DNA from: a virus
IMG/VR virus record: IMGVR_UViG_3300005831_000023
Direction: 5' to 3' (one strand)
Length of the DNA: 64,000 nt
Part shown: in pieces, positions 7,391 through 49,037 of the stretch
Position numbering within the stretch: the first letter of the stretch is position 1
Layout: every line of letters begins with the position of its first letter
Notes under the pieces: generated by a model
What the model was told of the DNA's origin: nothing
The model's input: the letters and a program-made list of their open reading frames with translations, nothing else
Databases searched by the model: none
Translations under genes and position numbers: made by a program

Positions 7391-7485
7391 TACATCTATT
7401 TTACAATAGTCTATTGACTAAGTGTATTAATTTAACATAAAGTCCATCGACTTTGCGTTAAAAAAATAAATTAGAGGTATTTTAT

Positions 7486-7983
7486 ATGAATGTTGGTAAA
7501 AACTTTGAGAATCAGTTTAGGAAATCAGTTCCAAAAGATGTACTATATTACAGAAATAAAGATACCGACCTATCTTGGTGTGGTGGTAATAGTAAGTTTA
7601 CTCCAAAAAGTGAATTTGATTGTTTATTATTTGATGGATATAATTTATTTATATTAGAACTTAAGTCTACTAAAGAATCAAGGATAAGTTTTGGAGATAA
7701 CGGAATGATTAAGACCCACCAGATCAGATCATTAAATTCTTATTCGCACTATAAAAATTGTATTTCTGGATTTATATTTAATTTCAGAGATAATTCAAAC
7801 TTTACTTGTTTTTTGAGCGTTCGAGATTTTGATATGATAACAACAGATACCGAGAAGAAATCAGTTAATATTAAAGAGATCGCCAAATATTGTATTCCAA
7901 TAGATAATAAACTACTTAGAATACAGTATTCATATGACATAGCAGGATTTTGTTTGAAATTTGCTGAAAATATTAATGTTTAA
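7486..7983 (+). CDS. recU: RecU-like Holliday junction resolvase (PD-(D/E)xK nuclease)
   Basis: N-terminal GKNFENQF. Catalytic-type segment FDCLLFDGYNLFILELKSTKE (D..D..ExK), then SF..HQI as in RecU. Confidence 0.65.
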   Translation: MNVGKNFENQFRKSVPKDVLYYRNKDTDLSWCGGNSKFTPKSEFDCLLFDGYNLFILELKSTKESRISFGDNGMIKTHQIRSLNSYSHYKNCISGFIFNFRDNSNFTCFLSVRDFDMITTDTEKKSVNIKEIAKYCIPIDNKLLRIQYSYDIAGFCLKFAENINV

Positions 7984-8122
7984 TAGGTTAGAATCTTTAA
8001 ATTGTCCAGAGAATTTTACATTTTTGTAGTATTTTTACAGATATGTACATAAAAAAAGCAATATCAAATATATATTACTTTTTTCAACTATGTACAAACT
8101 AATATGTTTACATTAGTTATCT

Positions 8123-8380
8123 GCTTTCAATATAGCAATTATTAGCTTCAATTCTAACAAATTAGTAAAGCTTAGTATCGTTTCAATGTACAATTGTTTA
8201 ATATTTTCAACTGTTTCAATAATAGCAATTGTTGTCAACTAACCGTCAAGTAACCGTCAAGTAACCGCATGTTTTCAGCTTTCAATATACAATTGTCGTT
8301 TATGTCTGCTTGCAACATAGCAATTATTAAATCTAAATTAATATCAGTTTCAATATACAATTGTTTAAATATTTTCAACT
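8123..8380. repeat. Decayed CRISPR-repeat-like units plus an 11-nt tandem repeat flanking the array
   Basis: Six units resemble the CRISPR repeat around a CAATTG core: 8123-8152, 8180-8212, 8213-8240, 8278-8307, 8308-8335 and 8347-8380. Units 8180-8212 and 8347-8380 are nearly identical to each other, and each abuts a repeat-like unit with no spacer. AACCGTCAAGT occurs as 2 full tandem copies plus a degenerate partial third copy (AACCGCATGT) at 8241-8273. Confidence 0.55.
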
Positions 8381-8671
8381 GTTTCAACATAACAATTGTT
8401 GTTTGCAAACTAATTAAGTTGAATTCAATTTAAATTAATGGTTTGCAGTTTCAACATAACAATTGTTGTTTGCAAACCACATACTAACAAAACAAAAGTT
8501 AAAACTCGAACGTTTCAACATAACAATTGTTGTTTGCAAACGCAGAAATAGTTGGTAATGGTAGTAAAAAAACAAGGTTTCAACATAACAATTGTTGTTT
8601 GCAAACACTGCATTTTTCGATTATTAACCATCCACCATAATGTTTCAACATAACAATTGTTGTTTGCAAAC
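8381..8671 (-). CRISPR. CRISPR array: 5 identical 30-nt repeats and 4 unique spacers
   Basis: Repeat GTTTCAACATAACAATTGTTGTTTGCAAAC at 8381-8410, 8448-8477, 8512-8541, 8577-8606 and 8642-8671. Spacers at 8411-8447 (37 nt), 8478-8511 (34), 8542-8576 (35) and 8607-8641 (35). The strand call is tentative. The minus strand matches the adjacent nuclease gene, places the decayed repeats at the distal end, and gives a repeat ending in GTTGAAAC. Confidence 0.9.
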
Positions 8672-8897
8672 GCTTTTCGAAACTAGCTTTCAAAAATTAC
8701 AAAACCTCTAACTAATCATTACAACTAGCTTTTAAGATTTTGTTCCAAGTACAATTGCATTTTGCTATCCAAGTGGATAGGGTGTCTATATAGTTCTTGG
8801 AAACTCAATAGACTTAACGAGCGGAAGCCAACTACCAAGTAGAATTACGACGAATACTCGCTTTTAGCCGCCAAATCGGCTTAAGTACTATTATATA
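8672..8897 (-). ncRNA. Candidate tracrRNA / omega-RNA-like scaffold (or array leader) between the nuclease stop codon and the array
   Basis: Non-coding and visibly richer in G/C than its surroundings. Hairpins CTATCC-AAGT-GGATAG (8765-8780) and GCCG-CCAAAT-CGGC (8867-8880). ACTTAA/TTAAGT long-range pairing (8812-8817 with 8880-8885). A repeat-like segment GTTCCAAGTACAATTGCATTTTGC at 8742-8765. No T-run terminator after the nuclease gene. Confidence 0.4.
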
Positions 8898-10169
8898 TTA
8901 CTTTTTATTTTTTTTCAACTTCTTTTTTATTATTTCTTGATTATCTGGGTTGGAAATATTTTTAGCAGCATTATAATCTGCATCAAGTTTTACTCCACAA
9001 TTAACACAAACAAATTCATCTCTTTTTACTCTATTGTCTTTATCTGTATGCCCACACCCACTACACTTTTGACTAGTGTATCTTGGGTTTATAAGTTTAA
9101 CTTCAATTCCAACTTCATCAGCTTTGTATTTAATCTTTTCTTGTAAATCGAAATAGCTCCAATCTTTAAGAAATAACTTATCTTTTTTAATATTTGATAA
9201 GTCTTCCATCTGTATTATTTTACAGTTATTCTTAACTGCTAATCCTACAATATATTTAGAATATTTATGGTTAATCAAATCTTTAAAATTAGCTATTTTC
9301 TTTCTCACAACTCTTACATATTTAGACCTATGTTTATATCCTCGACCTTTTATAGCATCGCTTTTTATGCTAGATTGCAAAGACTTTAATAAAGATTCTT
9401 GTTTCTTTCTAAAGCTGTCTATTTCGCCTCCTCTTATGTGATATCTTTTTAAATTATTATTAAATGCCATATAAGCAGCATTTACTATTCCCATGTCTAT
9501 ACCCATTATATTTTTATCACTTAAAAGTAACTCTTTCTTTTCCATACAATATGTTAAATTAATGAACCATTTATTCTTACTAAAAATTATCATTGAAGCT
9601 CCGATTTTATACTCTCCAGATAGCACGCTTTCAATTATTTTCTTTTGGTAATTACCATCAACTTTAATTTCTACGCAAACATGGCAACTACCTTCGTTTC
9701 TTGCAAATAACCTTAAGTCTACATAATACTTATTTTCATTTTCAATAACTTCTATGCTCTTAGAATGTAAATCTATAATACTATTTTTATAAGATGGAAT
9801 AGACATCTCACCTTTTAAAAACTTCTTCTTACTATCATTCCATTTCTTGCAACCTCTTTGAATAGAAGTTGAAATATTAGCTTTCGATAGCATTGGGTAT
9901 TCGGTTCTGATTACTTTATCACAATACCCACTAAAAGATTTGTATCCTAATATACTTAATATATCTGGTTTACACTCATGTTTGATATAATAATCCGAAC
10001 AATAATTATTCCATTCCCAATTTAATCTAATTGTTTTGTTCAATACTTTTTGTGTTTGGTCTTGAAACTCCACAAGTTGTTTCTTAAAATCTTTGAAATC
10101 TATACCCTCAGAATCGATTATCTGAAAGCGCATCACTTTATTTATTGTATCAATTTTTATTTCGTCCAT
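8898..10169 (-). CDS. cas12f: Miniature type V effector, Cas12f/TnpB-like RuvC nuclease (423 aa)
   Basis: Split RuvC motifs appear intact: GIDMG (D225, codon 9495-9497), IQMEDL (E322, codon 9204-9206) and DADYNAAKNI (D398, codon 8976-8978). Also RYTSQ plus a CxxC..CxxC zinc ribbon (C369/C372/C388/C391). Strong SD GGAGGA lies 6 nt upstream of the ATG. The gene sits directly next to the array. Confidence 0.85.
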   Translation of the reverse strand: MDEIKIDTINKVMRFQIIDSEGIDFKDFKKQLVEFQDQTQKVLNKTIRLNWEWNNYCSDYYIKHECKPDILSILGYKSFSGYCDKVIRTEYPMLSKANISTSIQRGCKKWNDSKKKFLKGEMSIPSYKNSIIDLHSKSIEVIENENKYYVDLRLFARNEGSCHVCVEIKVDGNYQKKIIESVLSGEYKIGASMIIFSKNKWFINLTYCMEKKELLLSDKNIMGIDMGIVNAAYMAFNNNLKRYHIRGGEIDSFRKKQESLLKSLQSSIKSDAIKGRGYKHRSKYVRVVRKKIANFKDLINHKYSKYIVGLAVKNNCKIIQMEDLSNIKKDKLFLKDWSYFDLQEKIKYKADEVGIEVKLINPRYTSQKCSGCGHTDKDNRVKRDEFVCVNCGVKLDADYNAAKNISNPDNQEIIKKKLKKNKK

Positions 10170-10170
10170 C

Positions 10171-10599
10171 TCATTCCTCCAGCATATTGTATATACAAAG
10201 TATGGACATATTAGCTACTTGACTTTTATTTACACCCCATTTTTTAGCAAGGTGTATTGTCAAATCATTAACGGAATTGAGCATATTGAATGATACATGT
10301 GTTGTATCTTTATTCTTCTTTATTCTATTATATGCAGTTCTAACATCATCAATATCTTTTATTTTAAATTTCAAATCTTCAAAACTTGTTTTTTTATCAA
10401 TTAATTTATTAATTTTCAATAAATCTTCTTGACTCAAGTTTTGTAAGTTTTCTATAATATTATCTATAGAAGTTTTAATTATAATCTTCTCTTTAATATT
10501 TTCTTGAGTTTTATTTTTTTTTGGATAATTAGCAGCTTGTTCTATATCTATATCTACGCCTTCATTTTTATTCTTCTTATTCATTTTCATACCTCTCAT
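10171..10599 (-). CDS. Putative centromere-binding partition protein (ParG-like, C-terminal ribbon-helix-helix)
   Basis: Follows parA with a 23-nt overlap. The C terminus THVSFNMLNSVNDLTIHLAKKWGVNKSQVANMSILCIYNML has a strand-helix-helix pattern. Alternative starts exist at M4 and M6. Confidence 0.5.
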   Translation of the reverse strand: MRGMKMNKKNKNEGVDIDIEQAANYPKKNKTQENIKEKIIIKTSIDNIIENLQNLSQEDLLKINKLIDKKTSFEDLKFKIKDIDDVRTAYNRIKKNKDTTHVSFNMLNSVNDLTIHLAKKWGVNKSQVANMSILCIYNMLEE

Positions 10600-11356
10600 T
10601 AATTTTTTTTATAACTTCATTTGTCAATTTTGCATATTGTCTGGATATTTCTAATTTATTATCAAATAATTCTATAGGAATACTTAGTTCTTGAGATCGT
10701 ATAATATTAACAGATTCAGATAATATTGTATTAAATATTTGGTTACTATCAAAATATTCGCTCATCTTTTCAAAACATTTTTTTGTTAAAGTTGTCCTTT
10801 TATTTGCTCTAGTTAATACAGTTCCCAATATTTCCAAATCGCTATTAGTATTATTTCTAATATCGTTAACTAAATTTATAATCCTGTTAATACCTTCAAA
10901 TGAAAATATTCCCACATCTATTGGTATTATTAAGTAATCGCATGCTGATAGAACATTTAAAGTTGCTATTCCCATTGTTGGTGAACAATCAAATAAAATA
11001 AATTTATAATCATCTTCTACCTCAGATATTCTTTTTTTGATTATCAATTCTCTAGCTAAATAATTTGAAAAGTCTAGATCGATGGAAGTAAGTTCCAAAT
11101 GACTTGGTATCAAATCCAGATTATCAAACTTAGTTTTTAGTATTGCATCTTTAATTCCTATTTCATTTTTAAGAACACTGTAAATATTTCTATCTTTGTG
11201 AGATTCTTTTTTAGTATAAATTCCTTGACTTAAATTTGCTTGGCTATCCATATCTACTAATAATGTTTTATACTTTTTAGATAAATTATATCCAATATTA
11301 ATAGTACTGGTAGTTTTAGCAGTGCCTCCCTTTTGGTTAAACATAGCTATTTTCAT
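10577..11356 (-). CDS. parA: ParA-family partition ATPase (deviant Walker A)
   Basis: MKIAMFNQKGGTAKTTST (KGGxxKT), DMDSQANLS and IIPIDVG. 259 aa with no N-terminal HTH, so it is type Ib-like. Confidence 0.9.
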   Translation of the reverse strand: MKIAMFNQKGGTAKTTSTINIGYNLSKKYKTLLVDMDSQANLSQGIYTKKESHKDRNIYSVLKNEIGIKDAILKTKFDNLDLIPSHLELTSIDLDFSNYLARELIIKKRISEVEDDYKFILFDCSPTMGIATLNVLSACDYLIIPIDVGIFSFEGINRIINLVNDIRNNTNSDLEILGTVLTRANKRTTLTKKCFEKMSEYFDSNQIFNTILSESVNIIRSQELSIPIELFDNKLEISRQYAKLTNEVIKKINERYENE

Positions 11357-11373
11357 ACTTCATCTCCCTTTTT

Positions 11374-11402
11374 TTAATATGTTTATAACTATAACATATC
11401 AA
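11374..11402 (-). promoter_or_regulatory. Candidate par operon promoter overlapping an inverted repeat (operator / parC-like)
   Basis: On the minus strand: TTGATA (11397-11402), 17 nt, TATTAA (11374-11379). Overlaps the inverted repeat ATATGTT..AACATAT (11376-11398). TAATATGT motifs recur at about 11420 and 11430. Confidence 0.3.
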
Positions 11403-11800
11403 AAATAAAAATACAATCATAATATGTTAATAATATGTATTTGTTATGTTTATTATAAAAATATATTAATAATAACTATATTTCGACAAAAAAAATAAGA
11501 CCGACCGAAGCCAATCTTATTCATCTTTAAGCTATCTGAAATAGCATCTTTTTTGAAAGTTATAGAATATTCGACAAAATAATTTAAATTAATCAAATAT
11601 TCCTCTTTTCTTTTGAAATAAAACCTGTTATTATTTTAGTTGTAAGTGACACCCTTATCAAAAAAACTTACATTCACATCAACCGAACTACCAATTCTGT
11701 TGATGTATATACAACTAAAAAATTCCAATTACGCCAATTTAATACAGCCATTGAAAAACAACCCGAAATTAAATATTGGTTATGTAATTGTAATACAAGA

Positions 11801-11847
11801 CCCACTAAGACCCACTAAGATACCACTAAGATACCACTAAGATACCC
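11801..11847. repeat. Iteron-like tandem repeats upstream of rep
   Basis: CCCACTAAGA x2 (11801-11820), then TACCACTAAGA x2 (11821-11842), then a partial TACCC. Confidence 0.7.
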
Positions 11848-12077
11848 TTATTAGGTGTTAAGCAAGTAATTAATTTGTTAGGACTATAGCGAACGAACCC
11901 CATAAGGAACGCCCCATGGATAAATTATAAAATAAAACCTACAATAAAGCAATACTTTTTTATACTTTTTTACATTAACAAAACTTATTAAAAAGTATTG
12001 GTAAAACAAAGTGTTTTTCGACAAATAATCACATGCTATTTATTGACGTTTTAAAGCATGTTTAAGACACTTAATTT

Positions 12078-12112
12078 TTAAAATGTATAAATAATCGTCT
12101 TATACATTTTAA
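12078..12112. promoter_or_regulatory. 13-bp perfect inverted repeat upstream of rep (operator or structural element)
   Basis: TTAAAATGTATAA (12078-12090) and TTATACATTTTAA (12100-12112) with a 9-nt loop. Confidence 0.35.
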
Positions 12113-12166
12113 ATCGTTCAGTATGCTTTTATTTGATAAACAAGATTATATTATAGATATGATGCT

Positions 12167-12304
12167 ATGAATTTTTTGTCTATAGGTTCTAAAAGTACTA
12201 TATCCAAAATATTTAAAAATTTACGAGATGTGGAATTAATTAATGAAATAAAAGTTGGATTTCAAAATACTAATAAAATTTATGTAAAAAATATAAATAT
12301 ATAA
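12167..12304 (+). pseudogene. 45-codon ORF resembling an isolated winged-helix segment of the downstream Rep (remnant or mini-gene)
   Basis: MNFLSIGSKSTISKIFKNLRDVELINEIKVGFQNTNKIYVKNINI parallels Rep residues ..MLNCSEHSSIKYAKELIKYKLIEEDRIGYNQSNRIYL. No clear SD. Confidence 0.25.
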
Positions 12305-12318
12305 AGGAGTTACCAAAA

Positions 12319-13491
12319 ATGATAAAAATTAAAAGATACAAAGCAGAAGATTTAATTAAAAATAAATTTTATGAAATGCCTAAATTTTTACTATATAATG
12401 AGTTTAAAGGTTTATCTTATGGTGCTAAGATATTATATGTGTTACTTAAGGATAGACATAAATTGAGTATGAAAAACAATTGGGTGGATAAATATGGATA
12501 TATATATCTAATTTATACACGAAAAGATATGGCTAAAATGTTAAATTGTTCCGAACATAGTTCTATAAAATATGCTAAAGAATTAATAAAATATAAACTT
12601 ATTGAAGAAGATAGAATTGGTTATAATCAATCAAATAGAATATATTTAACAGAAATTACCATAGATATATACTCCAAACACACTGATATCAAGGACATGA
12701 ACAAATTGCAGTATGGACATGAAGAAAGTTCATGTCCGGACATGAAGAAAGTTCAACCTAATAAGAATAACTTTAATAATAATAATTCTACTAAGAATAA
12801 ATCTGTCTGTTCTGAATCAAAAGATGAACAATCGTTCGAACAAAAAACAGAAACAGACAGACAGACAGATATTGACATAAAAAATGATTTATTGGAAAAG
12901 GTTAACATCAACCTAAAAAATGACAAAAAAAAGGATTCATCAGCAAATACTAATGAAAACCTAAAAAATGACAATAAAAATTGTTTGGGTAAAGATCTTA
13001 AAATCAACACATTAAGCTATCCAATCAATTTTATTAAACAACATTTTAAGTTTAATGAGCTGATAAGTCAACCACCAATACAAGATGAGATTTTTGCAGA
13101 GTTGCATAAAATATTAAATTATAAGTCTCAAACCATTAAGATTGGCGCCAAGATACAAGATGAAGACATTGAGATATTTAAACAAAAGCTTATGAAACTT
13201 ACACCAGAAGACATACAAAATGTGGTAAATAAGGTCTTAGAAGTTGCAAATAAAGAATATGTTCAACATCCAGACTTGCTAATAAGGACTAAGATATACT
13301 ACCAGTTTAAATCTAGCATTAAGGCACTATCTAAAAACAATGCAAAAAGGAAACCAAAAGAACCTATACCAACAGTCAATAACATACCACAAGTACCACA
13401 GGAACGTAATTATGAGCAAAGAGAATACACAAGTGAGTACCTTGAAAGCTTTTATGAAAATTATTGGGATAAACATACTAAACCAGAATAA
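12319..13491 (+). CDS. repA: Plasmid replication initiator, RepA_N family
   Basis: The N-terminus FYEMPKFLLYNEFKGLSYGAKILYVLLKDRHKLSMKNNWVDKYGYIYLIYTRKDMAKMLNCSEHSSIKYAKELIKYKLIEE..NRIYL matches the RepA_N pattern. SD AAAGGAG upstream. Low-complexity central region with DNA-level repeats. Confidence 0.85.
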   Translation: MIKIKRYKAEDLIKNKFYEMPKFLLYNEFKGLSYGAKILYVLLKDRHKLSMKNNWVDKYGYIYLIYTRKDMAKMLNCSEHSSIKYAKELIKYKLIEEDRIGYNQSNRIYLTEITIDIYSKHTDIKDMNKLQYGHEESSCPDMKKVQPNKNNFNNNNSTKNKSVCSESKDEQSFEQKTETDRQTDIDIKNDLLEKVNINLKNDKKKDSSANTNENLKNDNKNCLGKDLKINTLSYPINFIKQHFKFNELISQPPIQDEIFAELHKILNYKSQTIKIGAKIQDEDIEIFKQKLMKLTPEDIQNVVNKVLEVANKEYVQHPDLLIRTKIYYQFKSSIKALSKNNAKRKPKEPIPTVNNIPQVPQERNYEQREYTSEYLESFYENYWDKHTKPE

Positions 13492-13494
13492 TAA

Positions 13495-13977
13495 ACGATT
13501 TAGAGGCTAAATAAGACGTTTAAATATCTAGAGGTCCAATTATACCATTTTGTCATTTAAAGAGCTTTATGACCCATACAGACGTCAAATTAGACCATAT
13601 ATGATGTGGTATAAACATAATCGATTTATTGCTGCTGCTATTAACATAAAATATTAATGTTAATGACAAAAATAAGGACATAATAAAATTAAGCGATTTA
13701 AAGGCTATTTAAGACATTATAATTTCTAGACACAAATTTATATGATTTTAGCATTTAAACTCGAATATGGGCAAACAGACGTTAAATAACACTATTCTGG
13801 ATGGGGTAATAGCATTAAAAGATATTAAGACATATTAAACATTTTATTAAAATATATTGCGAAGCGTTACAAAGCGATTTAAGACAGTTTAACTTTTGAG
13901 AGGTCAAATTATATCACTATGCACTAAAAATATCGTGTATGGGCAAGGAAACGTTAAATAGACCTATTCTGAAATGA
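13495..13977 (+). repeat. Three imperfect ~105-118-nt direct repeats downstream of rep
   Basis: Units at about 13495-13612, 13691-13806 and 13871-13977. They share the blocks GCGATTTAA(A/G)GGCT / TAAGAC / TCTAGAGGTC-AAATTATA / CAGACGT(C/T)AAAT(T/A)A(G/A)AC..TAT. Confidence 0.75.
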
Positions 13978-13992
13978 GAAAGGATATAGACA

Positions 13993-14133
13993 ATGCCTAT
14001 CAAAACTTTAGAGGAAACATTTGACATAATTAATAAAAATAAAGAAATAGCATTAAATGGAAAATATGTTAATGGAAATGAATATGAATTAGAACTTGTT
14101 AATATATACAAGAATTGTATTTTAGAAGAATAA
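13993..14133 (+). CDS. Possible small ORF (46 aa)
   Basis: ATG preceded by AAAGGA at 8-nt spacing. MPIKTLEETFDIINKNKEIALNGKYVNGNEYELELVNIYKNCILEE. Too short for the supplied ORF track. Confidence 0.3.
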   Translation: MPIKTLEETFDIINKNKEIALNGKYVNGNEYELELVNIYKNCILEE

Positions 14134-14298
14134 TTAGAAAATAAGTCGCAATAACCATTTATTGTATGTAACTGCCATAACTATATACTTTTTTAAATAT
14201 AAACTTTATTGGCATTAATAGTAATGCTAGTATAAGTTTTTTAGTTATGTAATTTTATAAAACATTAATAAATATATTACATAATATCAAAAATCTGC

Positions 14299-14323
14299 AA
14301 AAAAAAAGTGATAATAATATCAC
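14299..14323 (-). terminator. Weak intrinsic terminator candidate
   Basis: GTGATA-ATAA-TATCAC hairpin (14308-14323) followed on the minus strand by a T9 run (plus-strand A-run 14299-14307). Confidence 0.35.
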
Positions 14324-14442
14324 ATAAAAAAAATCAATTCTCATGCTCCTAGTGCATCTTAAATAGTATACAAATATATACCTTTTGTCAATAAGTATAG
14401 TGTATAGTGATAATATGTATATTTTGTAAATAGTTTATAAAA

Positions 14443-14493
14443 CAAAAAAAATTAGCCTAACAATACAATATTTAACTATTATATCATTAGGCT
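14443..14493 (-). terminator. Intrinsic terminator candidate at the end of the late gene block
   Basis: AGCCTAA / TTAGGCT stem (14454-14460 with 14487-14493) just after the stop at 14499. Followed on the minus strand by AATTTTTTTT. Confidence 0.4.
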
Positions 14494-14498
14494 TTATA

Positions 14499-14837
14499 CT
14501 ACTTAGTTTTTGGTAATTTAAATACATTACTTTCGATTAAAGTTTTAATCAACTTATCAAATCCGTTTTTCTTACTTAAACCAAGTCTACTTGTCATTTC
14601 AAGAACTATATCAAATGCATTCTTGAATCTATCAATATTTTTATCATTCTTGTATAATTGTTCTGATAGGTTTACAGCATGTCCTACGATCGATTCTAGA
14701 GCCTTAATCTTATCCAAGGTCAAATTATACCTTGATTTATATAAGTCTTTTAAATACAAGAATAACGTGTATAGAACACATACTAACAAAACAAAAGTTA
14801 AAACTCGAACGGAATTATTCATTATTAACGCATACAT
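14499..14837 (-). CDS. Membrane-anchored hypothetical protein (single N-terminal TM), last gene of the lysis cluster
   Basis: 112 aa. N-terminal hydrophobic helix VLTFVLLVCVLYTLFLYL. Lies directly downstream of the endolysin gene. Contains the spacer 2 match. Confidence 0.7.
   Translation of the reverse strand: MYALIMNNSVRVLTFVLLVCVLYTLFLYLKDLYKSRYNLTLDKIKALESIVGHAVNLSEQLYKNDKNIDRFKNAFDIVLEMTSRLGLSKKNGFDKLIKTLIESNVFKLPKTK
14777..14810. other. Protospacer: perfect 34/34 match to CRISPR spacer 2 (8478-8511)
   Basis: CACATACTAACAAAACAAAAGTTAAAACTCGAAC is identical on the plus strand at both sites. The next base (G) also matches the first base of the following repeat. The match covers codons ~10-20 of the 112-aa gene. 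Confidence 0.95.
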
Positions 14838-14855
14838 ACAAAAATCTCTCCATTT

Positions 14856-15611
14856 CTATTTGCCAAACATTTTTAATACTTTACTTAACATTACAGCAAC
14901 TTCTTCTCTTGTTGCAGTATTCTTTGGATTAAAATTACCATTCTCATCTCCAACAATAATTTTGTTTCCGCATAAATGATTTACTGAATCTCTCGCCCAT
15001 TCTGCTATCTCGTCATGGTCATTAAATATTCTAGCTTCGACTTTTTCAATAACTGGATCAGTCAATGGAACATCTAAATAATATAATATTCCAACAGCAA
15101 CATTATTTGAAATTTCATTCATTTGATTTACTATAAAATTAGCATCATCTTTATTATCATGAAATGCAATTTCTACAAGGCTTGCAGGAGCATTAGTGGA
15201 TTCTAATTCATACATGCTTTTACCATCGCCATAAAAATTCTTACCAACCTTTACTCCTCTGTCTTTAGTAGGCGTTAGAGGTTCTAGTTGACCATAAATA
15301 GCACGAGATAACTTCTCACCTTCTCCACCAAACATATGACAAAAAACTTCACAACCACGATCATCACCAGTATTAGCATTTGAATGTATTGCGATATGCA
15401 CATCTACGTTTTTCGAGTTTGAATCTTTTACTATTTTAGATAGCGTCCAAGTATTCTCACTCCTATAAACTATCACTCCTCTAGATTGAAGTATCTTTTG
15501 TATGTTATCAGTTATCAAAGCCATGCGATAAGCTTCTGTGCCATACTCGCCAACTCCAACATTATCAAACTGATTTGATCCACTTAAATAAACACTTTTC
15601 ATAAAATTCAC
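14856..15611 (-). CDS. Endolysin: N-acetylmuramoyl-L-alanine amidase (Amidase_3-type) with a C-terminal SLH-like wall-binding module
   Basis: Motifs HIAIHSNA and SLVEIAFHDN. C terminus EWARDSVNHLCGNKIIVGDENGNFNPKNTATREEVAVMLSKVL is SLH-like. Confidence 0.9.
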   Translation of the reverse strand: MNFMKSVYLSGSNQFDNVGVGEYGTEAYRMALITDNIQKILQSRGVIVYRSENTWTLSKIVKDSNSKNVDVHIAIHSNANTGDDRGCEVFCHMFGGEGEKLSRAIYGQLEPLTPTKDRGVKVGKNFYGDGKSMYELESTNAPASLVEIAFHDNKDDANFIVNQMNEISNNVAVGILYYLDVPLTDPVIEKVEARIFNDHDEIAEWARDSVNHLCGNKIIVGDENGNFNPKNTATREEVAVMLSKVLKMFGK

Positions 15612-15612
15612 C

Positions 15613-16005
15613 TCACATTTTATTAGTTATTTGAAGCACTAAATATGTTAATCCTGCAATGATTATTGGTGGCATAGCTTTTTCAATTACCATTTTGAAT
15701 ATTTCTTGAAATGACATAGAATTATTCTTTAAATCGTTTATGTTTTGTTGGATTATTTTATTATCTAAGTTATCAATTTTATCATTTAACTTTTGTACAA
15801 GTTCTGTTTGCTGTGATACGTTTGCAGTAAGTTTAATCAACACTTGAGATTGTTTGTCCAGAATATCTTCATGTTTAGTATTTGATTTTGTCAACATCTC
15901 GACTATTGTCTTAAGTTCTGTAACTATATAAGTTAGAGAATTTAAGTTATCGATATCCTTTTGAATTGATTGAAATAAATCTTGTTTTATGCACTCGTGA
16001 GCCAT
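15613..16005 (-). CDS. Putative holin / membrane-anchored coiled-coil protein (C-terminal TM)
   Basis: 130 aa. Helical N-terminal part and a C-terminal hydrophobic helix PPIIIAGLTYLVLQI. Lies immediately upstream of the endolysin. Confidence 0.5.
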   Translation of the reverse strand: MAHECIKQDLFQSIQKDIDNLNSLTYIVTELKTIVEMLTKSNTKHEDILDKQSQVLIKLTANVSQQTELVQKLNDKIDNLDNKIIQQNINDLKNNSMSFQEIFKMVIEKAMPPIIIAGLTYLVLQITNKM

Positions 16006-28297: not shown

Positions 28298-30340
28298 TCA
28301 TAATCTATATGCATGATAGTCATATCTTGCATAAGTTATACCATTGACAGAAAATATTTCATATGATGGATAAGAACTCGTTAGTTTACCATAATATATA
28401 TTGTCTGCAACATAAGTATATACTTTATCAGCAGGAGTATCTTGGCAGAAATATCTTTTACCCATCATTACAGCATTATAACCCATATAATAATACCCAT
28501 TTCCATATACGTCACTAACTAAACTTTGCTCAGTACTAGCTATTTTAGTAGCATCATTTATACATCCCTTAACAACAAAAACTTCTTGACCATCGTGAAT
28601 TCTAGTAGCACTAAAATCTCTATATAGCGGATAAGCACTATTAATATCTGAAAATGGTAACATATACTGACCATTTAATCCATCGATAACTTTAAACTTT
28701 ACAGTATAGTTACTATTGTCAATATAGAAGAATAATTCACCCATGTAAAAAGCTTGGATTGATTCATTACTTGGAAGTCTAACAGATACATCTATGATCT
28801 TTTGTACAGCAATAGAACGTGCCATTCGAATACTAATACCATTCTTAGTTAGACTAGCGTAGTTAGTTGTTAAATTACTTGCAAGTGCATCATCGCAATA
28901 AAAATTAATTGTCCAACCTAGCAAGTCTTGAAACATTGTAGCACAAGTATTTACAACTCTAGAATTAATACTTTTTCCTGCTTCGGATGTAGTAATTCTA
29001 GCTGTTGTAATGCCATAAGAATCTGTTCCTGCACTAGTACTTAAAACAGTTTTAACACCATAAACATAATCATCATTTTTCATGCTAGAAACTACATTGA
29101 AATTATATCTATTTGAACCAGTGCCAGTAAATACTTTAATGCTTCTAGCACGTTTGAAAGATGAATCATAGTAATATAATTTAGATTTTTCACCAAGACT
29201 TATAACAGGAGGAGTAAAATTAGGATATCCGTCATTATAAGCGTTAAGATACCAACACGTTGTAAAATCCCATCCAACAAATGTTGATTGAGTTTTCATT
29301 TCAGAAGTTGTTTTAGGAGTTGCATAAAGTTCTGGAAATATACAAGTATCTGAGTTATAATAACAAGATGTCATAACAATTGGTGGATCGCTTATAGCAC
29401 CAAGAAAAGCTCCAGGCTCTTCTTCCGTTAATTCGGTTTGATTTGTATAATTAAGTACACAATAGCTATTAATATAAGTGTTATCATAATAGGTAAATGG
29501 TACAAATCCTGCTACAAAGCGAGGATTGATTGTAACTATTAGATTACAAATAGAAAAACAGTTTATAACATAAATAGCATCAAGTTCAGAAGCAAAACCG
29601 CCAGTATATCCATATTGACAAGTAATTGTTGAAACAGAACTACATTTTTCGATTCTTAACCATCCACCATAATTTACAAATCCACCAAAAGAATCTATAC
29701 CACCAAAAGTTGCTGTTGAATGACAATTTTCTATATAGTTATATTCTTCAAAATTAGCACTCCATCCTTCGCAACCTCCAATAAATCCTCCGACATTATA
29801 AGGTAATTTTGAACCAGTATTGTTAATTATAAGACTTGTAGTACAATCTTTTATATAACTAAATGTATTACTTGGATAAAACTCACCAGACAAACCTCCA
29901 ATTGTACTAGGGAAATAAACATTACAATTTGAGTTTATAGTTAAACTTGTAGTTATGTTTTCAATTTTACCAGAATAAATACCACCCGCTAATGCACCTA
30001 ATTTCAAAACTGAATCAGTCCAAGTTGCATCATTTAAATTTATTATAGCATTTTCTATATTAATATTCTTTATAGTATAAGCTGTTGTAATATCACTAAA
30101 TAGCCCCCAATACCAAGTATCAAATGGATTCATAACTAGATTAGTGATTTTAAATCCACCGCCATCATATCCTCCTGTAAATTCTCCACCAATTGGCGAC
30201 CAACTTGGGTAATCACTTAAGTCAATATCAGCTGTCTGTAAGAAAAATGATGATAAATAATTTCTAACATAGTTTAATTGTATTGAATTGCTTACAAGGT
30301 ATGGATCAAACTCCGTACCAGTACCGCCATCAAAAGACAT
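28298..30340 (-). CDS. Tail-associated protein with a GLUG-motif beta-helix-like N-terminal half
   Basis: The N terminus GTGTEFDPYLVSNSIQLNYVRNYL..ADIDLS..WSPIG..FTGGYDGGGFKITNL is typical of GLUG-motif proteins. Repeated GG(L/F)xG motifs. Confidence 0.75.
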   Translation of the reverse strand: MSFDGGTGTEFDPYLVSNSIQLNYVRNYLSSFFLQTADIDLSDYPSWSPIGGEFTGGYDGGGFKITNLVMNPFDTWYWGLFSDITTAYTIKNINIENAIINLNDATWTDSVLKLGALAGGIYSGKIENITTSLTINSNCNVYFPSTIGGLSGEFYPSNTFSYIKDCTTSLIINNTGSKLPYNVGGFIGGCEGWSANFEEYNYIENCHSTATFGGIDSFGGFVNYGGWLRIEKCSSVSTITCQYGYTGGFASELDAIYVINCFSICNLIVTINPRFVAGFVPFTYYDNTYINSYCVLNYTNQTELTEEEPGAFLGAISDPPIVMTSCYYNSDTCIFPELYATPKTTSEMKTQSTFVGWDFTTCWYLNAYNDGYPNFTPPVISLGEKSKLYYYDSSFKRARSIKVFTGTGSNRYNFNVVSSMKNDDYVYGVKTVLSTSAGTDSYGITTARITTSEAGKSINSRVVNTCATMFQDLLGWTINFYCDDALASNLTTNYASLTKNGISIRMARSIAVQKIIDVSVRLPSNESIQAFYMGELFFYIDNSNYTVKFKVIDGLNGQYMLPFSDINSAYPLYRDFSATRIHDGQEVFVVKGCINDATKIASTEQSLVSDVYGNGYYYMGYNAVMMGKRYFCQDTPADKVYTYVADNIYYGKLTSSYPSYEIFSVNGITYARYDYHAYRL
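29639..29673. other. Near-protospacer: 33/35 match to CRISPR spacer 4 (8607-8641)
   Basis: Genome ACTACATTTTTCGATTCTTAACCATCCACCATAAT versus spacer ACTGCATTTTTCGATTATTAACCATCCACCATAAT. Same orientation as the spacer 2 match. Confidence 0.9.
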
Positions 30341-43229: not shown

Positions 43230-43664
43230 CTAAACTGAGTCCTTCTTCGCCTCCATTCGCTTCATTTTTTCTAAAAAATCTTCATCTTTTATACCATTCA
43301 TATTATTAGCAATAGTTATAATATCTAATAAATTTTGAGTGGTTAAATTATCTATAAAATCCTGCGTTGGTTCTTTATCAAATACAGCTGTCAAGTATTT
43401 ATTTAGTATACTATCTCCATCTTCATATCTCAATATTTCAGATACACCTATTGTTTTAATTATCATAAAACTATTATAGTCACCAGACTTGAAATATTTG
43501 ATCTTAGTAGCCTTAATAGTGATTATACCTATACCATCCACTTCAATTTGATTATTCTCTAATTTAGGCTTTTTAACGTTTGTAGAGGTATCTATATCTT
43601 CTTTCATTGTGTCAAAGCTTTCTGTAGCTTTTAATAACATTTCTCTTTCAACTTTATTGCTCAT
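43230..43664 (-). CDS. Tail assembly chaperone (G-like)
   Basis: 144-aa acidic protein upstream of the tape measure gene. Confidence 0.6.
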   Translation of the reverse strand: MSNKVEREMLLKATESFDTMKEDIDTSTNVKKPKLENNQIEVDGIGIITIKATKIKYFKSGDYNSFMIIKTIGVSEILRYEDGDSILNKYLTAVFDKEPTQDFIDNLTTQNLLDIITIANNMNGIKDEDFLEKMKRMEAKKDSV

Positions 43665-44544
43665 TAAAGTATCTCCTATCGTTTGTTAGTAAAGGCTCAT
43701 CACCTTTTTTAAGTTTAGGACATAGATGTAAGTTAGGCTTAACAACGTTATCTATATATTTATACTGATAAACTAAAATATTGCCATTTCTAATACATGG
43801 ATTTTGACAGCAATTATCAATACAATATTGTTGGTATTCACACATTATATGATCCTGGAATAAAGAAGTATCAACATACAATTTAAACCCATTCTCTTTG
43901 GCGCTTAAACAAAATGGTATATCTTCGCCAAATTCATGAAAATCATATCTGCATTTTGTATATGCATTCTTACTTATTAGGTACACTGCTCCAGTGTAAT
44001 CACATTCTACAATTGAGTTAAGTGGAAATTCATAAAAATGTGATATTGAGTTATATCTATTATTTATCAATACATTAGTTCTTATATGTGGATATTCTCT
44101 ATAAGGTTGGAGTATACTATCATTATTGATTAAGCAAGCAATTATATCTTTTTTACTTTTTAACAACTTTTTAAGTGTATTAGGAACTAAAATAATATCG
44201 CTATCAACGCTTAAAAAATAATCAGTATCTAAATTTTCTAAGATATGGTTTCTAAGAAGTGTTAATCTTCTATACGTTTCATTTCTATAAGTATCTAATC
44301 GCTTGTCTTTAAAAGCTGGAAGTTTATACTTCTCAAGTTTAATTTCTAGATATTCTTTATCATGAATTGATTTAAATCTTCTTAAAGTAGAATCAGTTCC
44401 ATCTTGACAGTTATTAATTAAGAAATATAGTTTAATTTTATCCTTGGGATAATCTAGATTATAGATAGCTTCTAAATATCTATCTATTAAATATTCTCTA
44501 TTAGATATTGGACATCCAATTGTTATAGTACGCAAATCAATCAC
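43654..44544 (-). CDS. Glycosyltransferase, family 2 (GT-A fold)
   Basis: N terminus ITIGCPISNREYLIDRYLEAIYNLDYPKDKIKLYFLINNCQDGT and a DSD motif (SVDSDIILV). Overlaps the chaperone gene start by 11 nt. Confidence 0.75.
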   Translation of the reverse strand: MIDLRTITIGCPISNREYLIDRYLEAIYNLDYPKDKIKLYFLINNCQDGTDSTLRRFKSIHDKEYLEIKLEKYKLPAFKDKRLDTYRNETYRRLTLLRNHILENLDTDYFLSVDSDIILVPNTLKKLLKSKKDIIACLINNDSILQPYREYPHIRTNVLINNRYNSISHFYEFPLNSIVECDYTGAVYLISKNAYTKCRYDFHEFGEDIPFCLSAKENGFKLYVDTSLFQDHIMCEYQQYCIDNCCQNPCIRNGNILVYQYKYIDNVVKPNLHLCPKLKKGDEPLLTNDRRYFNEQ

Positions 44545-44611
44545 CTCGTATTAGTGTCTAATTTGCTTTATATGGATTTGTTTAAAAAGACATGTAATTA
44601 TAGCTTAAAAC

Positions 44612-44660
44612 TAAATAAGAGGCTTATAAGGCATCTAGACGTCAAATAAGCCTATATATA
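44612..44660 (+). repeat. Short copy of the rep-proximal repeat family
   Basis: TAAATAAGAGGCTTATAAGGCATCTAGACGTCAAATAAGCCTATATATATC shares AGAGGCT, TAAG, ATCTAGA and GACGTCAAAT(A/T)AG(C/A)C..TATAT blocks, in the same order and orientation, with unit 13495-13612. Confidence 0.55.
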
Positions 44661-45284
44661 TCATTGTATAACGAATAATGCATTTCCCATTCCAAGATAG
44701 TTATATTCATTATCATCATGAATTAATGTAAATCCATTTTTCTCTAAGAATTTAGTATAGTCTTCAAATAGACATAGACCAGTGTAGCGCTCTTTTATAG
44801 AGTACTCAGTATATATAAGCTTAATTTGTTTTATAGCTATTCTAGATGCGCTAAGGACGTTATACTCATTGCCTTCCATATCAAACCAACAAACTATATC
44901 TCCAGTTATTTTGTTATTCTTAACAAACTTGTCTAAAGTAATAGTTTCAACAGTTTGTTTAGTTTTAAAATATACATCTGGATGAATAGTCAAATGTTCC
45001 TTTGGTTCTAACAAAGTATCTGATCCAGTTGTATTTCCAGAACTTACAAACATCTCAGAAGTACCATTCTTGTTGTGCAATGCAAGATTAAACAACTTAA
45101 CATTAGCTAGGTCTTTAGTTCTATCAGTTAACTCAGCAAAATGATGAGTAATAGGTTCTATTCCATACACAATTCCATTAGAAAATACATTGCTTAATTG
45201 AACTGTATCAAAACCTTTATTAGCTCCTGCATCAATTACTGTAGCATTATTTCCAACATACTTAAGAAAATCAAGTTTGTTCAT
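44661..45284 (-). CDS. FkbM-family SAM-dependent methyltransferase
   Basis: VIDAGANKGFDT (SAM-binding Gly-rich motif). LDKFV..I..DIVCWFDMEGNEYNVL is typical of FkbM-type methyltransferases. Confidence 0.7.
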   Translation of the reverse strand: MNKLDFLKYVGNNATVIDAGANKGFDTVQLSNVFSNGIVYGIEPITHHFAELTDRTKDLANVKLFNLALHNKNGTSEMFVSSGNTTGSDTLLEPKEHLTIHPDVYFKTKQTVETITLDKFVKNNKITGDIVCWFDMEGNEYNVLSASRIAIKQIKLIYTEYSIKERYTGLCLFEDYTKFLEKNGFTLIHDDNEYNYLGMGNALFVIQ

Positions 45285-45285
45285 A

Positions 45286-45984
45286 TCACAACTCCTTTAT
45301 TTTTATTCTTTCTAATACATTCAAGCTAAGTCTTTTAACAAAATTATCATGGTCATTTTCCCAGTTTATATGATAAGCTTCATCATTTGAATCTTTACTT
45401 CTTTTGCCAAGCACAAAATGTCTATGCTCAAATAATGTATTATCATTAATTCTATTATCTTTTAAGACACCTAAATCTCTAACATTAAAGTAAAGCTCGG
45501 TATCACTAAACATATGAGTATATGAAGGATGATAGATGGCTTTGTTTAATAACTTAAGACACTTAAAAGTCATTATTGGAATTGTAATAGATGGTCTATA
45601 TCCAAGATTATATGGATCTTGATACCCATCATTAACAAATAAACATCCAGCAAAGTCATTAAATTGGTCAAATAAATATAAATCCCAGTCAATTGGTGCG
45701 AAAAAATCGTCGGAACTCAATATTATAATATCATTATCATTAGCATCTAAATTAGAAGTTAAGTAATAAGTTGGATATACAACACCTCTAGTTCCATTGT
45801 CTGCAACGAATACTTCACAGTTAGATATATTATAACTATCTATTATTGATTTTTGAGAATCATTCGATACAGCTACTTTTAATATAATATTATCAATATT
45901 ACTACATTTAGATTTCCAGTCATTATATGTATCATAAAACATTTGTGGTCTTACAGTTGACCAAAGTAAATATATATTCATCAC
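45286..45984 (-). CDS. Hypothetical protein in the glycosylation cluster (possible glycosyltransferase)
   Basis: Operon context. IIILSSDDFFAP could be a DxD-like motif. No secure family assignment. Confidence 0.6.
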   Translation of the reverse strand: MMNIYLLWSTVRPQMFYDTYNDWKSKCSNIDNIILKVAVSNDSQKSIIDSYNISNCEVFVADNGTRGVVYPTYYLTSNLDANDNDIIILSSDDFFAPIDWDLYLFDQFNDFAGCLFVNDGYQDPYNLGYRPSITIPIMTFKCLKLLNKAIYHPSYTHMFSDTELYFNVRDLGVLKDNRINDNTLFEHRHFVLGKRSKDSNDEAYHINWENDHDNFVKRLSLNVLERIKIKEL

Positions 45985-46685
45985 TTACCCCAATTCCACT
46001 TTTCTCTAAAGTAACTTGCTCTATCATAGTAGTTTGTTTCAGATAATACATGAGTCTTATTCCATTTACTAGTTTGTTTAGCATGGTAGTAAGAACAGTC
46101 TAATTGGTACACATCCCATTTTAAAGCTTGCATTTGGAAAAACAAATCATCATCCTCAAACCCCCATCCTACTTTATAATTTTCATCAAACATGCATTTA
46201 TCAAATACTTCACTTTTAAACAATCCATATTGAGTTAATGCATATGAAGCAAATGAAACTTCATGTTTTAAAAGTTCATGTTCAATCGAAGGGAGTTGAG
46301 GAGTATAAGTTTTCAAGTCGTTTGTAAAATACTTAGGATTGAATCCAATGCATTTAGCATTAAAATTTAAATCATCAAATCTGTTTTTAAAGTAATTTAA
46401 ACTTCCGTTAATATATAATATATCAGAATCCATCATTAGTATAAAATCACCTTTAGCAACTCTAATCATTTGATTCCTACCAATTGCAGAGCCAACATTT
46501 TCACTATTCAAGATACTTATAAGGTCATTTTGATCTTTCAACCATTCTTGTGATCCATCTACTGAACCATTATCCAATATAATAATTTCTAAGTCTACAG
46601 TTTTACGCTCTTCACGTAAATTATCTATTGTAGGTTTTAATATTTCTAACCAATTCCAATTAATAATGCAAACACTAAATGTCAT
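45981..46685 (-). CDS. Glycosyltransferase, family 2
   Basis: FSVCIINWNWLEILKPTIDNL..IIILDNGSVDGSQEWL and MDSDILY (DxD). Confidence 0.8.
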   Translation of the reverse strand: MTFSVCIINWNWLEILKPTIDNLREERKTVDLEIIILDNGSVDGSQEWLKDQNDLISILNSENVGSAIGRNQMIRVAKGDFILMMDSDILYINGSLNYFKNRFDDLNFNAKCIGFNPKYFTNDLKTYTPQLPSIEHELLKHEVSFASYALTQYGLFKSEVFDKCMFDENYKVGWGFEDDDLFFQMQALKWDVYQLDCSYYHAKQTSKWNKTHVLSETNYYDRASYFREKWNWGK

Positions 46686-46690
46686 GGTGA

Positions 46691-47422
46691 TTACTCCTTA
46701 TTTAAATAATATCTACCATTATATTTTTGATAAATATCTAGTAAAGTATCCATTCCTTGACCATAATCAATACATACTTTACCACATTGTTTAGCCATTA
46801 TATTTGATATAATCTTTGCATTTACACCAGCCGAAACTAGACTCCAATCATGATCTACACTATTCATATACTCAATAGTCTTATCAATATCATTTGGATT
46901 AGTAATATCTGTGTAATATCCTTTAGCGACAACTCCTAATTCTTCTAATAAAAAATCAGCAAATAGTTTAGACAGTGAACCAATCAATAATGGAGGATTG
47001 AGTCTAATCAAGTTAACAAAATCTTTACTATAACATAATCCTACATTTACAAATGCATAACATAAATTTTTTGGTTTATAATCTAAAGCCGAAAACATTC
47101 TACTTGTAAAATCATCATCTGGAAATACACCAACAAAATCAGCTTCTTTAATTGCATTAATAAGCCTATCTCTTGTTTTGATATCTGGTGTTGATACTCC
47201 ACAATAAGCAGTTCCAGTTGACCATGCTACATCTTTGCGTATATAATCTTGGCTAAGCAATATTTCTTGAGACATAATTATTAATTCGCCATCACCAATT
47301 CTAGTTATATAAAATGGTTCTTTATTTTGTATTTTAGTATATATAATATTAATTAAATCTTCTTGAGATATTAAATCAGAGTGATTAAATTTAATATGAT
47401 TAGCATTTGTTAAATAACTCAT
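46691..47422 (-). CDS. Putative GT-D-type glycosyltransferase (DUF1792-like)
   Basis: The RIGDGE motif (ITRIGDGELIIM) recalls the GT-D/DUF1792 family. The assignment is tentative. Confidence 0.55.
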   Translation of the reverse strand: MSYLTNANHIKFNHSDLISQEDLINIIYTKIQNKEPFYITRIGDGELIIMSQEILLSQDYIRKDVAWSTGTAYCGVSTPDIKTRDRLINAIKEADFVGVFPDDDFTSRMFSALDYKPKNLCYAFVNVGLCYSKDFVNLIRLNPPLLIGSLSKLFADFLLEELGVVAKGYYTDITNPNDIDKTIEYMNSVDHDWSLVSAGVNAKIISNIMAKQCGKVCIDYGQGMDTLLDIYQKYNGRYYLNKE

Positions 47423-47910
47423 ATGCTATCCCTTTCGATATCATCTACATAACCAATAATTCTAGCAGGATTTCCAACAACTATAGCATAGTCTGGGACA
47501 TCCTTGGTAACTACTGATCCAGCTCCAACCATAGCGTATTTGCCAATTATTAAATCTGGTAATATAGTGCAATTAGCACCTATAGAAGCTCCTTTTTTAA
47601 CTAAAGTTTTCTCGATACTCCAATTATCTTTAAATGCTCTTGGAAACTTATCATTAGTAAATTGAGTGCCTTGACCAATATAAACTTGATTTCTTATGGT
47701 TACACCATTGTATATATTTACCGAGTTTTGTATCTTGCAATGATTGCCAATACTTACACTCTTATCTATATATGAATTAGCTCCAATACTAGTTCCAAAG
47801 CCTATTATTGCATGATCTCTAACTTGAACATTGTTCCAGATTTTAGCACCATTTTTTATAGTAGATTTATCACTTATTTCTGATATTTTGTGAATAAATG
47901 CTTCTGCCAT
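47419..47910 (-). CDS. Sugar N-/O-acetyltransferase with left-handed beta-helix hexapeptide repeats
   Basis: Repeated [LIV]-G-x-x-x-x hexapeptide pattern (IGFGTSIGANSYI, IGNHCKIQNSVNI, IGANCTI, VGAGSVV, VGNPARI). Confidence 0.8.
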   Translation of the reverse strand: MAEAFIHKISEISDKSTIKNGAKIWNNVQVRDHAIIGFGTSIGANSYIDKSVSIGNHCKIQNSVNIYNGVTIRNQVYIGQGTQFTNDKFPRAFKDNWSIEKTLVKKGASIGANCTILPDLIIGKYAMVGAGSVVTKDVPDYAIVVGNPARIIGYVDDIERDSI

Positions 47911-47912
47911 AA

Positions 47913-49034: not shown

Positions 49035-49037
49035 CTC

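Follow-up and report, generated by a model that had tools for sequence, protein, structure and literature searches.

The 64,000-nucleotide stretch of viral DNA analysed here (IMG/VR virus record IMGVR_UViG_3300005831_000023, referred to below in its full length as the window) carries a gene for the RNA-guided nuclease Cas12f, followed on the same strand by a candidate trans-activating CRISPR RNA (tracrRNA) and a short CRISPR array. One spacer of this array is identical over its full length to a segment of the holin gene of the same element, and another matches a second late gene of the element with two mismatches. An earlier note on this DNA had presented the first match as a paradox, namely a perfect self-target on a replicon that encodes its own nuclease. 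Comparative data largely resolve this paradox.

On its gene content, the element is a phage-plasmid of approximately 118 kb. The proteins of the window are on record from only two contigs of the Joint Genome Institute (JGI); the longer measures 118,010 bp, so that the 64-kb window shows about 54% of the element. The assignment as a phage-plasmid follows from the joint presence of three groups of genes. These are genes for replication and nucleotide metabolism (ribonucleotide reductase, ThyX, dUTPase, a PolIII-alpha-like polymerase and a RepA_N initiator), genes for partition (a ParA ATPase and a small partner gene), and a complete late module of a tailed phage, comprising terminase, portal, a tape-measure protein of 2441 amino acids, tail proteins and a lysis cassette. 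The G+C content of the window was 29.6%, and a megablast search of positions 7400-15700 against phage and plasmid collections returned no close DNA relatives.

The partition genes and the CRISPR components form one string in the order parA, parB-like gene, cas12f, tracrRNA and array. The parB-like gene overlaps parA, and cas12f starts 1 nt past the parB-like stop codon. A matching string of parA, parB-like gene and cas12f was found in the nearest relative (locus L002), the Cas12f and ParA of which are 52% and 71% identical to those of the window. The string of L002 additionally contains an AcrVA2-like gene (positions 1774-2664 of that locus, 296 amino acids, Pfam PF26125) inserted between the parB-like gene and cas12f; no homologue of this putative anti-CRISPR gene was detected in the window by tblastn. 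The coordinates of all features are collected in Table 1.

Table 1. Features of the Cas12f locus and of the two self-matching sites, in window coordinates (PAM, protospacer-adjacent motif; aa, amino acids)
Feature	Coordinates	Strand	Remarks
parA (AAA_31/CbiA ATPase)	10577..11356	-	71% identical to ParA of relative L002
parB-like partner gene, 142 aa	10171..10599	-	positional counterpart in L002 is 36% identical
cas12f, 423 aa, type V-F1 (former V-U3), AsCas12f clade	8898..10169	-	full-length homology, intact catalytic residues
Promoter-like TTGAAA-17-TATAAT, 11/12	8890..8918	-	consensus match only; would start the tracrRNA near 8883
Candidate tracrRNA	8742..8886	-	homology of 8790-8886 with the 5' portion of the AsCas12f single-guide RNA scaffold
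CRISPR array, five identical 30-nt repeats and four spacers	8381..8671	-	minus-strand repeat GTTTGCAAACAACAATTGTTATGTTGAAAC; GTTTCAACATAACAATTGTTGTTTGCAAAC on plus strand
Spacer 1, 37 nt	8411..8447	-	0 matches in window or collections searched
Spacer 2, 34 nt, third from leader end	8478..8511	-	guide 5'-GUUCGAGUUUUAACUUUUGUUUUGUUAGUAUGUG; plus strand CACATACTAACAAAACAAAAGTTAAAACTCGAAC
Spacer 3, 35 nt	8542..8576	-	0 matches in window or collections searched
Spacer 4, 35 nt, leader-proximal	8607..8641	-	guide 5'-ATTATGGTGGATGGTTAATAATCGAAAAATGCAGT; matches element 33/35
Degenerate repeat copies past the last perfect repeat (decayed trailer end)	8120..8380	-	with three GTAACCGTCAA-like units in tandem at 8241-8270
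Protospacer of spacer 2, 34/34	14777..14810	-	codons 10-21, N-terminal hydrophobic segment of holin
PAM-side flank of spacer-2 target, 5'-TTCC (-4..-1)	14811..14814	-	wobble position of Ser9 (TCC) at -1
Holin gene, Holin_LLH family, 112 aa	14499..14837	-	Pfam Phage_holin_6_1 3.4e-7; phrog_608 holin
Terminator-like hairpin and T run directly past holin stop	14454..14493	-	sequence feature
Protospacer of spacer 4, 33/35	29639..29673	-	mismatches at guide positions 19 and 32
PAM-side flank of spacer-4 target, 5'-GTAA	29674..29677	-	wobble position of a Val codon (GTA) at -2
Spacer-4 target gene, 680-aa tail-module protein	28298..30340	-	distant relatives carry GLUG motifs

The effector was identified by three kinds of comparison. 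A phmmer search against the PDB gave AsCas12f (8J1J, 8J12 and 7WJU) at E values of about 1e-95, with residues 10-419 covered, and OsCas12f (9NZQ) at 1.7e-84, while the PADLOC models Cas12f and Cas12u3 matched at 3.1e-119 and 1.5e-115, respectively. In an alignment of 22 sequences, the RuvC residues D225, E322 and D398 and the zinc-finger cysteines C369, C372, C388 and C391 (CxxC...CxxC) were invariant, and all of them are present in the protein of the window. Its D225 aligns with the catalytic D225 of AsCas12f, which is the residue mutated to inactivate that enzyme. The intact triad and zinc finger bear out the statement of the earlier note that the nuclease is apparently active.

No cas1, cas2 or cas4 gene was detected by PADLOC and Pfam among the 50 open reading frames (ORFs) of the window. 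The lack of adaptation genes is typical of the former V-U3 group (PMC7229846). A PADLOC match to 'typeIV_Cas6' (5e-14) proved to be a false lead, as the ORF concerned (46691-47422) encodes a GT-D glycosyltransferase (Pfam 8e-45). Two other identities were considered for the effector and rejected. A TnpB protein of an IS200/IS605 transposon does not fit the five-repeat array and the parA and parB-like neighbours, no Y1 transposase was found, and the Pfam OrfB_IS605 match was below the cut-off. A nuclease-dead RNA-guided repressor of the Cas12m or TldR-like kind does not fit the presence of all three catalytic residues.

The array lies downstream of cas12f on the same strand and begins 227 nt past its stop codon. 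The five repeats start at 8381, 8448, 8512, 8577 and 8642 and enclose spacers of 37, 34, 35 and 35 nt. Beyond the last perfect repeat, some of the decayed copies abut without a spacer (e.g., 8180-8241 and 8347-8410). These repeats and the GTAACCGTCAA-like units may be the trailer of an older array, or they may be binding sites of iteron or centromere type next to the partition genes. A gene of 165 amino acids resembling Holliday-junction resolvases (7486-7983; phrog_843, 9e-19) adjoins the array trailer.

The strand from which the guides are read determines which flank of a target matters, and it was assigned from homology, layout and the side of the PAM. The layout was drawn from 80 fetched related loci. 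In the array-bearing relatives, the array is mostly situated on the gene strand, 200-300 nt downstream of cas12f, and the repeats have the form GTTT...GAAA(C/T/G) in gene orientation. The published AsCas12f single-guide RNA scaffold ends in the repeat, which is followed by the spacer (bioRxiv 10.1101/2022.10.20.513037), and this scaffold matches the gene strand directly after cas12f in relatives L003 and L009. When the scaffold was aligned with L003, L009, L010, L012, L002 and the minus strand of window positions 8790-8886, stems 1 and 2 were kept, with compensatory changes in 9 of 15 pairs. The promoter-like site, from which transcription would begin where the 5' end of the scaffold aligns, and the decayed repeats at the trailer end point to the same orientation. 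So do the flanks of four Bacillus protospacers: read in gene orientation, all have one trinucleotide in common at the 5' end, whereas the 3' flanks show no consistent sequence.

The energy of the repeat:tracrRNA duplex was no better than that of shuffled repeats, and the AT-rich, quasi-palindromic repeat also pairs with the opposite-strand reading; the duplex energy was therefore left out of the assignment. Altogether, the guides are very probably read from the minus strand. The suggestion of the earlier note that the guide, if transcribed from the plus strand, would be antisense to the holin mRNA was consequently abandoned, since a guide from the minus strand has the sense of that mRNA. Between the tracrRNA core and the first repeat lies a degenerate repeat-like segment (8742-8765) which, with about 20 nt beyond it, is conserved in L002 (4060-4085); this conservation suggests a functional anti-repeat or leader element. 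Expression of the tracrRNA and the array is presumed.

The plus-strand sequence of spacer 2, CACATACTAACAAAACAAAAGTTAAAACTCGAAC, occurs exactly twice in the window, in the array and in the holin gene, both times on the plus strand. The identity of 34/34 positions noticed earlier was thereby confirmed, and none of 100 dinucleotide-preserving shuffles of the window gave any match to the spacer. The proposed extension to 35 nt also held, as base 14811 is a G, the first base of the next repeat. The target was correctly placed in the gene of 112 amino acids downstream of the endolysin, and this gene could be identified as a holin gene. The guide (5'-GUUCGAGUUUUAACUUUUGU...) has the sense of the holin mRNA and would pair with the plus strand, the template for transcription of the holin gene.

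The holin gene is the last of a late and lysis gene string of about 49 kb. Upstream of it lie an endolysin gene with Amidase_3 and SLH domains (14856-15611, minus strand) and an XhlA-like gene of 130 amino acids. Codons 1 and 6 of the holin ORF, which begins with MYALIM (14823-14837), both specify Met; situated just upstream of the protospacer, they may form a dual-start arrangement for holin and antiholin. Six related holin loci were found, representing five distinct alleles with 70-83% protein identity. They differ from spacer 2 at 6-16 positions, and four of the six have mismatches at guide positions 4-7. It follows that spacer 2 fits the element's own allele or that of a much closer sibling.

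At guide position 19, spacer 4 specifies Ile and the genome Arg, and the mismatch at position 32 is synonymous. Relative L089, which is 81% identical, has the base of the spacer at position 19, so spacer 4 was probably derived from a related allele rather than from the very genome that carries it. The mismatch pattern would fit capture from a close sibling better than self capture followed by escape in the seed or PAM. Such an origin would make the perfect match of spacer 2 unsurprising: for siblings with 95-97% identity, the probability that a given 34-nt stretch is identical is 0.18-0.36. Two of the four spacers match late genes in the visible 54% of the element, and 2.2 would be expected if all four were derived from the lineage.

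The search for further matches was negative. The region 8100-8900 had no other matches elsewhere in the window, and the exact repeat and the cores of spacers 1-4 had none in the viral contig collection. The core of spacer 2 occurred in one metagenome contig of 1.1 kb that was otherwise unrelated, which was set aside as a chance 20-mer. A low-stringency search of the array against phages and plasmids gave chance matches only, e.g., to the 3' end of an unrelated ORF of Clostridium phage CS266P1. Among 220 spacers from the arrays of relatives, compared with all fetched loci (±10 kb per locus), no self-matches were found beyond the two of the window.

Cas12f1 relatives were present on 124 plasmid records, the majority of them large Bacillus plasmids, as well as in a few phages. 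In Bacillus cereus D17, three of the six spacers on plasmid NZ_CP009299.1 match other Bacillus plasmids and none matches its own complete plasmid of 210,673 bp, which suggests that same-replicon matches are not the rule in the Cas12f1 clade, as far as a sample of one plasmid can tell. One spacer of Bacillus pacificus, which is widely shared, matches about 25 small plasmid-prophages (e.g., pBMB46) just upstream of an Xpf-like gene for a late sigma factor, in its ribosome-binding region. No spacers of the Bacillus and clostridial relatives matched phages. The Cas12f1-like gene of Bacillus phage Mgbh1 (L093, 39451-41045), 36% identical to that of the window, is separated from the next gene by only about 290 nt and hence has no array; it may be a TnpB-like single-guide form.

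The four independent Bacillus protospacer flanks (L100-L105 and L094), three for spacers of D17 and one for the spacer of Bacillus pacificus, read ATCA, TTCA, CTCA and TTCA, that is, 5'-TCA in all cases. Plasmid-borne Bacillus orthologs of Cas12f1 thus have a natural 5'-TCA and are aimed at other plasmids and plasmid-prophages.

The flanks of the two self-matching sites were compared with this motif. Both 5' flanks given for spacer 2 in the earlier note were correct, but for a guide in minus-strand orientation the GAATAATTCC flank alone counts. The two guide-sense flanks, TCC for spacer 2 and TAA for spacer 4, are each one synonymous third-codon base away from TCA (for the latter, Val GTA versus GTC). 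The chance that two random flanks of the window each lie exactly one step from TCA was about 0.03.

AsCas12f recognizes the PAM NTTR through residues H72, Y76, S92 and K96. Its Y76 contacts positions -3 and -2 and confers the preference for T, and H72 and K96 contact position -1. In the alignment, the corresponding residues are S/D/S/Q in the window enzyme and its nearest relative and S/Y/S/Q in orthologs of the Bacillus cereus group, so that three of the four PAM-reading residues are common to the window enzyme and the Bacillus orthologs. Since the shared residues occupy positions that contact -1 and -2 in AsCas12f, a TCA-like PAM may reasonably be proposed for the enzyme of the window.

The flanks of the corresponding site in the holin relatives are TCA in L007, TCC, as here, in L004 and L005, CTTA in L091 and TTTA in L092. 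A T-rich PAM of the As type, for which the last two would qualify, was dropped, since the Tyr responsible for T specificity is missing from the enzyme. For the same reason, the earlier observation that neither flank has a T-rich motif was accurate for the flanks themselves but is not decisive, as the T-specific Y76 is replaced by Asp here. Self-tolerance through a missing PAM, which the earlier note had raised as a possibility, is now the best-supported reading of the locus, given TCA at the Bacillus protospacers and TCC and TAA at the element's own sites.

The explanation favoured here, to which we give about an even chance, is that the module serves to exclude close, incompatible kin of the phage-plasmid, the resident copy being spared by flanks that lack the licensing motif. 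A complete type V-F1 module within the partition-gene string would carry a four-spacer array directed at its own phage-plasmid lineage. The complex of Cas12f and CRISPR RNA (crRNA) would cut an incoming or co-resident relative in which the protospacer lies beside a licensing PAM, and the resident would survive as long as its guide-sense flanks, 5'-TCC and 5'-TAA, are not licensing. PAM-bearing competitors are presumed to exist. The earlier suggestion that near-identical competitors are the target fits the behaviour of Cas12f1 on Bacillus plasmids; its other part found no counterpart, as no PAM-bearing allele with the spacer-2 protospacer was encountered.

If this reading of the PAM is true, the element distinguishes itself from near-identical rivals by single synonymous flank bases. 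The string of parA, parB-like gene, cas12f, tracrRNA and array would then link CRISPR interference with plasmid incompatibility in phage-plasmids.

Several points weigh against this explanation. No competitor with the spacer-2 protospacer was found in the viral and metagenome collections or among the six related holin loci, several mismatches of which are PAM-proximal. The argument from TCA is built on four protospacers of enzymes only 40% identical to that of the window. The explanation is weakest with respect to the PAM: with Asp in place of the Tyr of AsCas12f, TCC could be licensing, and spacer 2 would then be suicidal. As TCC is common to L004 and L005, the flank shows no sign of a derived escape mutation. 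Expression of the module is itself a predicted step in the scheme.

Among the alternatives, a neutral relic ranks highest, although we consider it rather unlikely. The spacers would have been taken from the element's own or sibling DNA (e.g., by host adaptation in trans during replication), and they would have no function because their targets are non-licensing or because the module is silent or inhibited. The missing adaptation genes agree with this, as do the small number of spacers, the decayed repeats flanking the array, and the absence of matches to anything else in phage, plasmid, viral and metagenome collections. The two matches in 54% of the element are likewise the number expected for spacers derived from the lineage. 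Self-targeting spacers are also usually taken as accidents, as Stern et al. reportedly did in 2010, and this was counted in favour of a relic. However, identity among the five repeats is 100%, the intact cas12f encodes every catalytic residue, and the tracrRNA stems are conserved and accompanied by a promoter-like site. Moreover, the linkage of parA, parB-like gene and cas12f has been kept in a relative with only 52% identical Cas12f, which argues for selection on the module.

The self-match could also be a product of assembly, in which the array of one strain was merged with the holin and tail alleles of a near-identical other, so that no molecule is truly self-targeting and kin targeting merely resembles it. 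This was judged improbable. In its favour, the window comes from a JGI metagenome contig, with proteins on record from JGI only, the source of spacer 4 already differs from the assembled allele, and two genomes 95-97% identical would share a given 34-nt stretch with the probability given above. On the other hand, no more than 6 kb of a single contig separates the array from the holin gene, no junction is apparent, and the same Cas12f, holin and 680-amino-acid proteins occur on two contigs.

The earlier note had also proposed that guide-directed binding without cleavage controls lysis. As a regulatory lock, the Cas12f-crRNA complex would, while the element persists as a plasmid (lysogenic state), bind its holin and tail genes with no productive cleavage and block RNA polymerase, so that leaky expression of late or lysis genes stays off. 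The position of cas12f 1 nt after the parB-like gene, in the parA string, makes its expression during plasmid maintenance probable. For both self-matching spacers, the guide is complementary to the template strand of a late gene, the orientation in which repression of the dCas12a type is effective. This agreement would arise by chance with a probability of about 0.25, as nearly all genes lie on one strand. Spacer 2 is exact for the element's own allele, whereas the relatives show the 6-16 differences described above, and nuclease-dead relatives that act in this way exist (Cas12m).

The RuvC site of the window enzyme is intact, however, whereas those natural RNA-guided repressors that are known either have a dead nuclease or work with short or partial guides, and here the guide matches over its full length. 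The non-synonymous mismatch of spacer 4 is unexpected in a repressor guide under selection, and a PAM is required for binding as it is for cleavage. The spacer-2 target lies within the last ORF of the 49-kb string and not at a promoter, and the complete plasmid of the relative D17 has no self-matches. No positive evidence for control of lysis by binding was thus obtained, the intact RuvC site and the full-length match disfavour it, and we regard the lock as quite improbable.

A variant of this idea retains the nuclease activity. A nuclease-competent Cas12f, co-expressed with the partition genes, would use PAM sites of near-cognate sequence within the late genes of its element as a switch, and slow cutting or binding would either silence holin and tail genes during plasmid maintenance or destroy mistimed lytic copies. 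Such a switch is doubtful; if true, it would be the first natural active type V-F effector that regulates its own mobile element by full-length self-guides.

True autoimmunity caught in passing, with a licensed site, an element that is being cut and a transient, deleterious variant, has very little probability: the match is perfect, the nuclease is intact and an enzyme in which Asp replaces Tyr could accept TCC as its PAM, but the element was assembled into a 118-kb contig with its proteins on two contigs, spacer 2 is third from the leader end and hence not the newest, and a low-copy replicon that is cut in every copy would quickly be lost.

Two observations were made elsewhere in the window. 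Amid the virion structural module lies a sugar-modification cluster (43654-51055) with glycosyltransferases (GT2, GT-D and GT1-like), a DegT-family aminotransferase, a hexapeptide acyltransferase and an FkbM methyltransferase, which may glycosylate virion proteins. The late gene string is headed by a sigma-factor-like gene (62745-63737; phrog_5767, 2.4e-32), and its product of 330 amino acids may be the late-gene activator of the phage-plasmid.

Among characterized systems, the effector is closest in form to AsCas12f1 from Acidibacillus (Sulfoacidibacillus; 422 amino acids, PDB 8J12, 7WJU and 8DZJ), to which it is about 45% identical over the full length at a similar size. The RuvC and zinc-finger residues are the same, with D225 even at the same number, the tracrRNA lies between gene and array with stems 1 and 2 kept, and the repeat has a similar form (GTTTGC...GAAC). 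The window is also without adaptation genes, as the literature has it for V-U3. In contrast to AsCas12f1, the copy of the window is located on a phage-plasmid beside partition genes, and its array matches its own replicon. The residues that read the PAM (H/Y/S/K in AsCas12f1, S/D/S/Q here) differ as well, and the PAM is therefore probably different. With 423 amino acids and this unusual pocket, the protein is a candidate editing enzyme that could broaden the targeting range of miniature editors.

The Cas12f1 loci of Bacillus plasmids have effectors about 40% identical to that of the window, related 30-nt repeats, spacers of 34-37 nt, short arrays and no nearby adaptation genes, and their spacers are aimed at other mobile elements. 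The differences concern the targets: two of four spacers of the window match their own replicon, one of them perfectly, as opposed to none of six in D17, and the flanks of the self-matches are TCC and TAA and not the TCA of the Bacillus protospacers.

Arrays borne by mobile genetic elements mostly target related elements, and type V-F is enriched on plasmids (PMC11656645). The mini-arrays of SPV1 and SPV2 and the plasmid systems of types IV and V-M resemble the locus in that the array is located on a mobile element, with no adaptation module in the window, and spacers, here two of the four, correspond to genes of the own lineage (PMC11656645). However, the SPV1 and SPV2 mini-arrays borrow the effector of the host, whereas the element of the window has its own nuclease and tracrRNA, and types IV and V-M act without cleavage, whereas RuvC is intact here. 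In the SPV viruses the carrier copy differs within the protospacer; here, one protospacer shows no difference at all, which leaves the flank as the sole means of discrimination.

Chromosomal self-targeting spacers (Stern et al. 2010; Wimmer and Beisel 2020) likewise form a perfect pair on one replicon, for which a missing PAM or an inactive system is the simplest explanation. Unlike those arrays, the array of the window has identical repeats and an intact cas12f, the decayed repeats being confined to the region past the trailer end; half of it is directed at self or kin, and the replicon is a phage-plasmid. Type V-F1 systems, their occurrence on plasmids, arrays of mobile elements aimed at relatives and the tolerance of self-spacers through a missing PAM are thus already known. 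New are the phage-plasmid as carrier, the linkage to partition genes, the unusual PAM pocket and a four-spacer array of which half matches the carrier, possibly with discrimination by single synonymous bases.

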